Assembly: GCA_041665265.1 (NCBI GenBank)
Contig: JBAYJE010000004.1
Coordinates: 507-64,506, forward strand
Reading direction: 5' to 3'
Length of the DNA: 64,000 nt
From: Minisyncoccota bacterium
GTDB lineage: Bacteria > Patescibacteriota > Minisyncoccia > UBA6257 > GWB1-50-10
Positions 5,191 through 64,000 of the stretch are shown piece after piece (position 1 is the first letter of the stretch; every line of letters begins with the position of its first letter). The position numbers and the translations under genes are program-made. The notes beneath the pieces are model-generated. The model ran no database searches and was not told the origin of the DNA. It saw nothing but the letters and a program-made list of their open reading frames with translations.

Positions 5191-5200
5191 CACTCACTTG

Positions 5201-5272
5201 CTCCCCGGGTAGGATTCGAACCTACGACCATCGCGTTAACAGCGCGCCGCTCTACCGCTGAGCTACCGGGGA
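5201..5272 (-). tRNA. tRNA-Asn (anticodon GTT)
   Basis: Manual cloverleaf: acceptor TCCCCGG/CCGGGGA, D-arm GCTC-AGCGGTA-GAGC, anticodon loop CTGTTAA, T-arm GTAGG-TTCGAAT-CCTAC, discriminator G; CCA not encoded. Confidence 0.8.
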
Positions 5273-5706: not shown

Positions 5707-5820
5707 GCGAATACCTCCTTTCTAAGGATTCTCAATAAAACAAATGACTGTCTGCAAGCATAAAAGTATTTTTGATTTCTTGCAAGGACGCCTGAAAATG
5801 GGTATAGTAAAAATCGCTAC

Positions 5821-5892
5821 GCCCCTATAGCTCAATGGTAGAGCAGCTGCCTTTTAAGCAGTTGGTTCTAGGTTCAAATCCTAGTGGGGGCA
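5821..5892 (+). tRNA. tRNA-Lys (anticodon TTT)
   Basis: Acceptor GCCCCTA/TGGGGGC, D-arm GCTC-AATGGTA-GAGC, anticodon stem GCTGC/GCAGT with loop CTTTTAA, T-arm CTAGG-TTCAAAT-CCTAG, discriminator A; followed by an imperfect hairpin plus T-run. Confidence 0.8.
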
Positions 5893-5940
5893 CAAAACGA
5901 AAAACATAGATACTTGTTATCTGTGTTTTTTGTTTTTATC

Positions 5941-61666: not shown

Positions 61667-61740
61667 GGGTGCCTATCGGGAATTGAACCCGAATCGAGAG
61701 TTCCACAAACTCCAGTGTTAACCTTTACACCATAGGCACC
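61667..61740 (-). tRNA. tRNA-His (anticodon GTG) with encoded G-1
   Basis: G-1 + acceptor GTGCCTA/TAGGCAC, C73 opposite G-1 (His hallmark), D-arm GTGT-AAAGGTTA-ACAC, anticodon stem GGAGT/ACTCT with loop TTGTGGA, T-arm TCGGG-TTCAATT-CCCGA. Confidence 0.8.
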
Positions 61741-62279: not shown

Positions 62280-62951
62280 ATGGATAATCTACTCGATAGT
62301 TTAGGTCAGCTCGTCATTCACTATCCCTCCTGGGCAAATGTCATTATCGCCGCCATCATTCTCATTCAAGGAGAATTTGCGGTTCTTCTTTCTGTATTTC
62401 TTATCGTAAGTGGCAACTTAACGTGGGGCGCATATCTTTTAACTGCTCCTACTGCACTTCTTGTAGGAGAAACATTTGCCTACTTTGTAGGACGCACACT
62501 TCGCAATACTCGCTTTGGGTGGAAATTATACCGCAATAAGATTAAACCGAATAAAAAATACCAGCCTTATTTTTATTACTTAAAAATGAATCTCACAAAA
62601 CTTCTTGTTGCTTCAAAATTTCTTGTGGGTGCAAACCTTTTTATTCTTCTTCTTGTGGGGTGGTCAAAAACAAAATTCGGCATCTTTATGAAGTCTTATA
62701 TAAAAGGGCTTGCGTTTTGGTTTATTAGTATGACCACGCTCGCCTACTTCCTTATGTCGGGATTAAATTATCTCAAAACTGCAAAACTCTTCAAACAAGC
62801 AGAATATGGACTCGTGCTCGTCTTCATTCTTATCTTTGGGTTCGAATTTCTTCTAAAGAAATCCATACAGAAAGGAATACCATTTAAAACAAAGGGTGAG
62901 GACATGAGCACATTCCTCGAAGACGAGGAAGAGGGTATTACAAAAAAATAA
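62280..62951 (+). CDS. DedA/VTT-family membrane protein
   Basis: GETFAYFVGRTLRNTRFG fits the DedA motif G(D/E)xxxYxxGRxxG; ~5 TM. Confidence 0.45.
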   Translation: MDNLLDSLGQLVIHYPSWANVIIAAIILIQGEFAVLLSVFLIVSGNLTWGAYLLTAPTALLVGETFAYFVGRTLRNTRFGWKLYRNKIKPNKKYQPYFYYLKMNLTKLLVASKFLVGANLFILLLVGWSKTKFGIFMKSYIKGLAFWFISMTTLAYFLMSGLNYLKTAKLFKQAEYGLVLVFILIFGFEFLLKKSIQKGIPFKTKGEDMSTFLEDEEEGITKK

Positions 62952-63015
62952 TTTTTTTCAAATTTTGTCGTTTAATTCTCTCCCGCAAAAAATCCAGCGT
63001 TATGCCCGATTTTTC

Positions 63016-63036
63016 TTTGTGCCGCGGGAGGGAATT
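63016..63036. repeat. 21-nt direct copy of the 3' end of the intron-containing tRNA
   Basis: TTTGTGCCGCGGGAGGGAATT is identical to 63222..63242; the ~185 nt in between is unusually GC-rich. Confidence 0.6.
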
Positions 63037-63195
63037 TCCTTCGCCTCTCGGCTCGCCGTCGCTCGCCTCGGGTTAGGCACCGCCTCGCGTCCTTCGCTAC
63101 TGCTCAGGAACATTGGCCCTCACAAGGGAGACGAAGCGTCTTCCGGCATTCAATTCCCGAACATCTCGCAATAAATTGCGAGATTCCCCTCGGCA

Positions 63196-63224
63196 AATAA
63201 AAATCCCCCTTCGGGGATTTTTTT
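63196..63224 (-). terminator. rho-independent terminator immediately 3' of the tRNA (bidirectional)
   Basis: AAATAAAAATCCCCC-TTCG-GGGGATTTTTTT. Confidence 0.7.
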
Positions 63225-63225
63225 G

Positions 63226-63515
63226 TGCCGCGGGAGGGAATTGAACCCCCGACGCCAGCCTCTTCCAAGGCTGAATTTGGACTATCTCATCATCCTGTTA
63301 TAGGATGTCGGGCGCTGTGTGCGGGGTTATTGTTGGGACTCACCCACTAGTCTCTACGCCTTCTCTGCAACCTAATGCCCTGCAGAGCTTGGTTCGGGAT
63401 TGTTTTCTGTTATATCAAGAAAGTTTTCCCCGAGTTCACCCGATTTTCATCGATTCGTTACCGAATCGCGCCCCAAAGAGTTTAGGGCTGCGCTCTACCA
63501 CTGAGCTACCGCGGC
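63226..63515 (-). tRNA. tRNA (anticodon GAA, Phe, if spliced after U33) interrupted by a group I intron
   Basis: 5' exon (63484..63515) GCCGCGG-TA-GCTCAGTGGTAGAGC-G-CAGCC-CU; 3' exon (63226..63265) GAAGA-GGCTG-GCGTC-GGGGGTTCAATTCCCTC-CCGCGGC-A; acceptor and anticodon stems pair perfectly. Confidence 0.6.
63266..63483 (-). ncRNA. group I intron (~218 nt) in the tRNA anticodon loop
   Basis: P1: exon CCCU pairs with intron GGGG (U.G at splice site) across loop AAACUCUUU. Conserved P7 halves GAGACUAG and GAUAGUCC; intron ends in G before the 3' exon. Confidence 0.55.
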
Positions 63516-63567
63516 AATGTTCGCTTTTCCAACAATTCAAGTATAATCATTTATATAGCATAGTCAA

Positions 63568-64000
63568 AATGAAATCAGAACCATTATTAAAAGTTGATAA
63601 TCTCGCAGTGACCATTGGCACCAACCACATTCTAAAAAATGTGTCATTTGAACTTCATAAAGAACAAGTGCTTGCGATTATCGGACCAAACGGCGCAGGG
63701 AAATCAATTCTCCTTAAAACATTACTTGGGCTCTTCCCTCTCTCTCATGGCTCCTTCACATGGGCACCAGGAGTTACTTACGGCTACCTCCCACAACGTT
63801 TTCATATCGACCATTACCTCCCTATGACCGTAGAAGAATTTCTAAGACTAAAACCAAATCCAAAATATTCATTAAGCGCCGTACTCGAGCTTGTTGAAAT
63901 AGAAAGAAGCTGGCTTCATAAAAATTTATCTCAATTTTCTAGTGGCCAACTCCAGAAAATTCTCCTTGCCTGGGCAATTATTGATCAGCCTCAGGTGCTT
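63568..64000 (+). CDS. ABC transporter ATP-binding protein (metal-uptake ZnuC-like), 3' partial at window end
   Basis: Manual ORF from ATG at 63568: MKSEPLLKVDNLAVTIG...; Walker A GPNGAGKS; signature-like FSSGQLQK. Confidence 0.7.

Follow-up and report, generated by a model that had tools for sequence, protein, structure and literature searches.

A tRNA-Phe(GAA) gene of Patescibacteria very likely split after U33 by an ORF-less group I intron

Introduction

Does the interrupted tRNA at positions 63226-63515 of the window (the whole stretch of 64,000 nucleotides analyzed here) belong to a working gene and, if so, which amino acid does it serve and where is it spliced? The reading that we prefer, with a probability of roughly 0.93, is a functional tRNA-Phe(GAA) gene of Patescibacteria (the tiny, uncultured bacteria of the Candidate Phyla Radiation, CPR) that carries a 218-nt, ORF-less group I intron between U33 and G34. 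The split gene is real and very likely functional, whereas the splicing chemistry and its occurrence in the organism are what we infer from membership of the group I family. The question matters for annotation. Because standard tRNA finders miss the split gene when they run without an intron mode, the genome would appear to have no tRNA-Phe, an error that recognition of the split gene mends. Lui et al. (2021; PMC8172020) noted that group I introns often conceal the tRNAs of CPR bacteria.

The split gene and its surroundings

The two exons lie on the minus strand, at 63515..63484 (32 nt) and 63265..63226 (40 nt). Together they make up a tRNA-Phe(GAA) of 72 nt, and the split gene spans exactly 63226-63515 from G1 to A73. 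The gene, its flanks, and the other tRNA genes of the 64-kb window are as follows.

63540..63567, minus strand: promoter-like site TTGACT, 16-nt spacer, TATACT (10/12 matches to the consensus)
63484..63515, minus strand: tRNA-Phe 5′ exon, 32 nt (acceptor 5′ strand, D arm, anticodon-stem 5′ strand, C32, U33)
63266..63483, minus strand: group I intron, 218 nt (Rfam RF00028 and covariation)
63226..63265, minus strand: tRNA-Phe 3′ exon, 40 nt (G34 A35 A36 G37 A38, stem 3′ strand, variable loop, T arm, acceptor 3′ strand, A73)
63205..63217, minus strand: terminator-like hairpin UCCCC-GAA-GGGGG with a U run, 8 nt past A73
5200-5272, 5821-5893, and 61667-61739: other tRNA genes

The 5′ exon, read from 63515 down to 63484, is GCCGCGGUAGCUCAGUGGUAGAGCGCAGCCCU, and its last base, U33 (63484), is the -1 base; the 3′ exon, read from 63265 down to 63226, is GAAGAGGCUGGCGUCGGGGGUUCAAUUCCCUCCCGCGGCA. 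Once joined, the exons form a canonical cloverleaf that ARAGORN calls as tRNA-Phe(GAA). It has an acceptor stem of GCCGCGG/CCGCGGC followed by the discriminator A73, the D arm GCUC-AGUGGUA-GAGC, the anticodon stem CAGCC/GGCUG, a 5-nt variable loop (GCGUC), and the T arm GGGGG-UUCAAUU-CCCUC. No CCA is encoded in the gene, A73 being followed by CAAAAAAA. In intron mode, ARAGORN reports tRNA-Phe(gaa) i(33,218), that is, a 218-nt intron from position 33; the gene goes unreported by its default mode and by the Rfam tRNA model. A preliminary description of the locus had given coordinates, stems, P1, P7, and a terminal G that all prove correct in the minus-strand sequence, with an intervening part of exactly 218 nt, and its placement of the intron in the anticodon loop agrees with the intron-mode call.

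The promoter-like site is the only one within 62800-63700, and the end of its -10 element lies 25 nt upstream of the first tRNA nucleotide. Two loci are nearest to this region: L073, which comes from a MAG of ‘Candidatus Jorgensenbacteria’ (88% identity over 337 nt), and L004 (80% over 513 nt). The neighboring gene is also conserved in both, and the window thus most probably derives from a Patescibacteria member of the Parcubacteria type. The window sequence is present as well in ENA ERZ27249449 and JGI 3300037810. Public calls of the neighboring ABC-transporter ATPase differ: in ENA it is a 318-aa protein whose start lies within the intron, on the other strand (L001 gene 4038-4994), and in JGI it has 234 aa with an ATG at 63569. 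The longer ATPase call (63317-63568, plus strand) is probably a spurious N-terminal extension across an unrecognized split tRNA; recognition of the split tRNA would correct the ATPase start in the public gene call.

Architecture of the intron

The intron matches the Rfam Intron_gpI model (RF00028) over its full length (model positions 1-253) at 63.6 bits and E = 8.8e-14, the gathering cut-off being 50 bits. Together with a fold that covaries in 64 homologues, this match bears out the group I assignment of the preliminary description. No open reading frame is present in the 218 nt, and the intron therefore lacks a homing endonuclease. Helices P1-P8 can all be drawn. An additional hairpin, P7.1, separates P7 from P3′, and the intron closes with a short 3′ tail; P3 and P7 form a pseudoknot in the core. 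An intron position converts to a window coordinate as 63484 minus the position.

63480..63475, minus strand: P10 guide CUCUUU, pairing with GAAGAG of the 3′ exon (6/6 pairs)
63474..63470, minus strand: intron 10-14, forming P1 with exon G29-U33 (GCCCU/GGGGC, U33.G wobble, AAA/UUU extension)
63470..63480, minus strand: internal guide region holding the P1 and P10 guides (exon covariation)
63451..63468, minus strand: P2 hairpin, intron 16-33 (CGAUUCG-GUAA-CGAAUCG, capped by a GNRA tetraloop)
63443..63437 and 63314..63308, minus strand: P3, intron 41-47/170-176 (UCGGGUG with CGCCCGA)
63308..63443, minus strand: catalytic core enclosed by P3, holding P4, P5, P6-P6a, the P7 5′ strand, and P7.1
63433..63428 and 63399..63394, minus strand: P4, intron 51-56/85-90
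63422..63404, minus strand: P5, intron 62-80
63393..63358, minus strand: P6/P6a, intron 91-126
63354..63348 and 63284..63279, minus strand: P7, intron 130-136/200-205 (G-GACUA/UAGUCC, bulged A)
63347..63321, minus strand: P7.1 extra hairpin, intron 137-163 (loop UGAGUCCCAACAAUAAC)
63307..63291, minus strand: P8 hairpin, intron 177-193
63290..63285, minus strand: J8/7 AUGAGA, intron 194-199
63266..63278, minus strand: 3′ tail of 13 nt, intron 206-218 (AAAUUCAGCCUUG, omega-G at 63266)

The P10 guide lies directly 5′ of the P1 guide and complements the six bases that open the 3′ exon. P7.1 is a 5-bp hairpin with a conserved loop of 16-17 nt. The 13-nt tail contains no P9 hairpin, and the L9 tertiary contact is consequently missing. 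A P9.0 pairing (AA...UU) within the tail was considered and set aside, relatives giving it no consistent support. In P6, the window copy has an A.C where relatives carry a G.U.

Homologues and covariation of the fold

A scan with the P7-P7.1 motif, restricted to one genome per species, returned at least 120 loci, and most of those listed are Patescibacteria MAGs from many candidate phyla. ARAGORN calls a split tRNA-Phe(GAA) at 70 of these listed loci, and 68 of the 70 have the intron after U33 with the U(-1)/omega-G combination. No fewer than 68 species-level genomes, Patescibacteria for the most part, have the same intron at the same site, and at least five further loci are Phe genes that are mis-called through junction ambiguity.

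When the helices drawn on the window sequence are applied to an alignment of 64 sequences, 93.8% of cells are paired, compared with 33.6-47.1% in a control in which the 3′ partner is slid by one to three columns. None of 500 shuffles reached the observed pairing values, and compensatory changes are seen in 36 of 52 pairs. They affect all seven pairs of P2, whose loop conserves G and AA throughout the alignment, all seven of P6a (96.4% paired), all six of P8, and four of the five in P7.1 (98.7% paired); P3 and P4 are 99.5% and 100% paired across the 64 sequences. P7 and the P7.1 loop are invariant, for P7 partly by design, since the scan motif demanded its 5′ strand and the P7.1 loop; they yield no covariation evidence, and the support for P7 is its complementarity. 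Of the P3-P9 structure that the preliminary description had in mind, P3-P8 can thus be drawn at the above level of pairing, but the P9 hairpin is absent. That the locus looks like a tRNA split by a group I intron through chance has next to no probability, given the Rfam E value of 8.8e-14, the covariation in 64 homologues, and a published seed of its class that is ~80% identical.

The same intron family also resides in tRNA-Asn(GUU) genes of Patescibacteria, after U35 (loci L022, L029, L034, L053, L072, L114, and L115), and in tRNA(CAU) genes of cultured Isosphaeraceae, after U36, for example in Singulisphaera acidiphila DSM 18658. The Isosphaeraceae (Planctomycetes) loci include L015 and L016 (Singulisphaera, complete genomes), L040, L107, and others, all with the same P7.1 loop motif. 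ARAGORN often labels the split Asn and CAU genes Gln, Lys, Arg, or Thr because their junction is ambiguous.

Splice junction and tRNA identity

The evidence supports a 5′ splice site after U33, an intron terminus at omega-G (63266), and a mature anticodon GAA. The predicted ligation junction reads AGCCCU/GAAGAGGCU, the slash marking the ligation site. Among 69 homologues, the P1 guide forms 5/5 pairs with the exon in 54 and 4/5 in 15. It tracks the anticodon stem, exon GCCCU occurring with guide GGGGC in 35 of the 69 and GGACU with GGUCC in 18, while a third variant couples exon NGCCU with guide GGGCC. The P10 guide covaries with nucleotide 37 (GAAGA with UCUUY for G37, GAAAA with UUUUC for A37). 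A37 is usual in bacterial tRNA-Phe; position 37 of the tRNA described here is G, and the P10 guide of its intron matches G37.

Unsplit relatives point to the same junction. A 29-mer across the predicted ligation site is found uninterrupted in at least 120 metagenome contigs, and among the matches listed, 118 of 121 are intronless tRNA-Phe(GAA) calls. The exact 72-nt predicted spliced product recurs in at least 23 natural unsplit genes among these metagenome matches, so the same tRNA occurs in nature with and without the intron. Splicing after U33 to give the anticodon GAA (Phe), as first proposed in the preliminary description, accordingly finds agreement in the ARAGORN junction, in the covariation of P1 and P10, and in identical natural intronless genes.

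A real intron could still have another junction or belong to another tRNA, for example if splicing took place after A34 or later and produced a different anticodon. ARAGORN does shift the intron position in some homologues, an effect of bases that repeat at the intron borders. Yet U33 with G63266 is the only combination that yields the P1 U.G, a terminal G, and a 7-nt loop, the six-pair P10 fits no other 3′ site than G63266, and the 23 unsplit genes equal the predicted product exactly. We regard a different junction or identity as very improbable and retain the U33/G63266 junction.

The remaining alternative is a tRNA pseudogene whose intron has stopped splicing, which we judge improbable. Such a dead copy could account for the A.C in P6, the absent P9 hairpin, and the blindness of default tRNA finders to the gene. 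However, the exons and the catalytic core are intact, and at least 68 species preserve this architecture, nearly all variable helices showing compensatory changes. The guides also track the exon sequence, as selection for splicing would lead one to expect. A short tail without P9 is common to 38 homologues and is therefore a trait of the subfamily rather than a sign of decay. Finally, in the work of Lui et al. (2021; PMC8172020), closed CPR genomes had full tRNA sets only once split genes of this kind were counted.

For a functional split gene, splicing would proceed by the standard route of group I introns. A precursor of ~310 nt would be transcribed from the gene’s own promoter-like site. 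The guide GGGGC would pair with exon G29-U33 and so form P1 with its U33.G wobble at the expense of the lower three anticodon-stem pairs, and an external guanosine held in P7 would attack after U33. The guide CUCUUU would pair with G34-G39 of the 3′ exon to form P10, and the terminal G (63266) would enter the G site. The free 3′-OH of U33 would attack after 63266 G, joining the 72-nt tRNA and releasing the intron, and CCA would be added after splicing.

Relation to known tRNA and tmRNA introns

A tRNA-Phe split after U33 constitutes class Phe.2Ug in a catalog that extended the four classical types, Leu.3Ug, Arg.5Ug, fMet.2Ug, and Ile2.5Ug, to 21 (Williams, 2020, preprint; bioRxiv 10.1101/2020.01.27.920355). 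The classical cyanobacterial tRNA-fMet intron, too, is inserted at position 2, after U33 (10.1101/2020.01.27.920355). Judged by its sequence, the window intron is a further member of Phe.2Ug, without difference of substance, and the class is already known. With the seed ‘Mba55.Phe.2Ug’ of the Williams 2020 alignment it has 79-82% identity, and it shares with the seed of this class the tRNA-Phe host, the insertion after U33, U at -1, G at omega, and the extra-hairpin loop UGAGUCCCAACAAUAA; it differs in a shorter P8 and in its tail, CAGCCUUG compared with UGCCUUG in the seed. Neither host tRNA nor position is new, given the Phe.2Ug class, the fMet intron at position 2, and the report of Lui et al. 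The ‘unusual intron position and host tRNA’ of the preliminary description was thus an overstatement for a class that was catalogued in 2020, is common in Patescibacteria, and occurs in at least 68 species-level genomes; to a specialist, the window intron adds one unsurprising example.

The cyanobacterial tRNA-fMet(CAU) intron (fMet.2Ug) resembles the window intron in its insertion after U33, its P1 U.G, and its terminal G, but it has a different host tRNA, and the classical introns belong to subgroup IC3. In comparison with four classical published seeds, the window intron does not show the IC3 layout, in which P7 runs straight into P3′ and a P9 hairpin is present. The classical seeds have nothing between P7 and P3′, whereas the window intron has a covarying hairpin there and no P9, which places it outside the classical IC3 layout. 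In this respect it resembles the Lys.2Ug, Asn.4Ug, Leu.1Ug, and tmRNA seeds.

The Azoarcus tRNA-Ile(CAU) intron (Ile2.5Ug), the structural model for tRNA group I introns, is likewise a small, ORF-less ribozyme of the anticodon loop with a GNRA loop on P2, and we infer the same chemistry for the window intron from group I family membership. The Azoarcus intron is inserted after position 36, and its P1 is formed from anticodon bases only. In the window intron, by comparison, P1 extends three pairs into the anticodon stem, and the tail would supply a substitute for the captured strand. The group I introns of the tmRNA T loop (seeds Cbo40 and Tsu4) also have extra helices between P7 and P3′; they differ in host RNA and site and have two extra hairpins compared with one in the window intron. 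These tmRNA introns were reportedly placed in subgroup IA3 by Williams in 2002.

The intron tail and the anticodon stem

How does an intron lacking P9 hold its 3′ splice site? Three bases ahead of omega-G, the tail carries CAGCC (63273..63269), which duplicates the 5′ strand of the anticodon stem and could pair with GGCUG of the 3′ exon (63256-63260); such a pairing would put the 3′ splice site in an 8-nt loop. P1, for its part, withdraws G29-C31, that is, the lower three pairs, from the anticodon stem. Among the short-tailed homologues, 15 distinct combinations of tail and stem with other stems give 62 pairs between tail and own exon, compared with a shuffled mean of 49.0 (sd 2.65), and one of 5000 shuffles attained 62, although kinship among the sequences inflates tests of this kind.

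Our hypothesis is that the tail supplies a substitute helix, which keeps the 3′ splice site in place as long as the other strand is engaged in P1. The tail may pair with the freed strand of the anticodon stem in place of the missing P9, an exchange of strands between intron and tRNA. The covariation of tail and stem suggests how an intron with a stem-invading P1 keeps the other strand occupied. Along with a module downstream of the gene, the tail pairing is the sole point here that is perhaps worth further work.

A module downstream that duplicates the tRNA end

Beyond the terminator-like hairpin, and outside the intron, the window holds a GC-rich insertion module. It comprises ~175 nt of GC-rich sequence followed by an exact second copy of the last 17 tRNA nt and an 8-nt trailer, which creates a 25-nt direct repeat (96% identical, spacing 206 nt).

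63012..63204, minus strand: GC-rich, palindrome-rich insertion module, ~190 bp
63036..63012, minus strand: second tRNA 3′ end AAUUCCCUCCCGCGGCA with 8 nt of trailer (direct repeat)

The same arrangement is seen in L004, L073, L091, and L092. A covariance model of the 3′ 91 nt of the module, run on 1.56 Mb of fetched loci, identified 13 additional instances with scores of 28-52 bits. Each of the 18 modules, which range in length from ~175 to 205 bp, has a tRNA gene on its own strand 54-127 nt upstream, and seven types of tRNA are targeted (Phe, Gly-GCC, Arg-UCG, Arg-CCU, Leu-GAG, Val-GAC, and Val-UAC). Every module ends in a copy of its own tRNA’s 3′ end: the identical block from the T loop measures 17-21 nt in 11 of the 18 and 13-15 nt in two, and it is degenerate (2-6 nt) in five. 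Instances are located as follows.

L004:2377-2560
L073:1205-1376
L091:454-669
L092:4766-4986
L147:2454-2615
L222:92-268
L144:4184-4349 and 5735-5905
L100:3404-3575

The module follows split and unsplit tRNA-Phe genes alike and is therefore independent of the intron. A syntenic pair consists of an empty site in L047 and a filled site in L222, where the native flank resumes after the second copy. In the consensus fold, which comprises several hairpins, 25 of 30 pairs show compensatory changes, and folding of the module by itself gives modest z-scores (-2.2 and -2.75). G.U pairs number 24 and A.C pairs 17 in the module, compared with 311 and 54 in the intron as a control; G.U is thus not clearly enriched, and the hairpins may therefore matter at the level of DNA. 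An RNA made from the tRNA-sense strand was considered and is unsupported by this G.U/A.C comparison, a DNA-level element remaining likely. An Rfam search at E <= 1 gave the module no family, only weak chance matches (mir-9428, and a tmRNA fragment from the T arm), and four other instances had no Rfam match.

A regenerated tRNA with a displaced fragment is a hallmark of integrase-mediated islands (PMC4383910; PMC1762012), and phage Ms6 has its attB in a tRNA T loop (PMC1762012). Like the tyrosine-integrase islands (Islander, PMC4383910; Ms6, PMC1762012), the module combines an intact tRNA, an insert, and a displaced 3′ copy from the T loop. Unlike them, it has an insert of only ~175-205 bp and no integrase domain in the genes called within 3 kb, and it recurs with a conserved hairpin set after at least seven tRNA types. 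A phage attachment region was also considered: a scan of viral contigs for the core motif with the tRNA end returned four matches, all by chance in GC-rich coding sequence.

We tentatively suggest, in the knowledge that the idea is somewhat likelier to be wrong than right, that the module represents an undescribed family of Patescibacteria miniature insertion elements and, as a smaller point held with the same reserve, that the tail replaces P9 of the intron. Such elements may land at the tRNA T loop, bringing a replacement 3′ end and often a terminator, and may displace the original tRNA 3′ end as a copy; they would have conserved hairpins and no gene. The module may be a miniature insertion element, or it may be a structured RNA with a tRNA-like 3′ end; such an element may act as DNA, mobilized in trans by an integrase, or also as RNA. 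In the first case, the module would represent a novel type of miniature mobile element among bacteria whose genomes are very small.

Two smaller observations concern the sequences around tRNA 3′ ends. The terminator hairpins that follow the first and second tRNA 3′ copies are swapped in order between L004:2377-2600 and L073:1205-1420: CCCCC-GAAA-GGGGG comes first in L004 and CCCC-GAAA-GGGG second in L073, while CCCGCC-AUNG-GCGGG is second in L004 and first in L073. This suggests either an exchange between direct repeats or independent insertions. Separately, L174, L190, and L238 carry longer partial second copies of tRNA-Phe, 50-170 nt downstream of an intact unsplit gene. These copies begin in the D stem or the anticodon loop and extend through the 3′ end, some with 30-nt insertions, and look like other displaced fragments or decayed duplicates.
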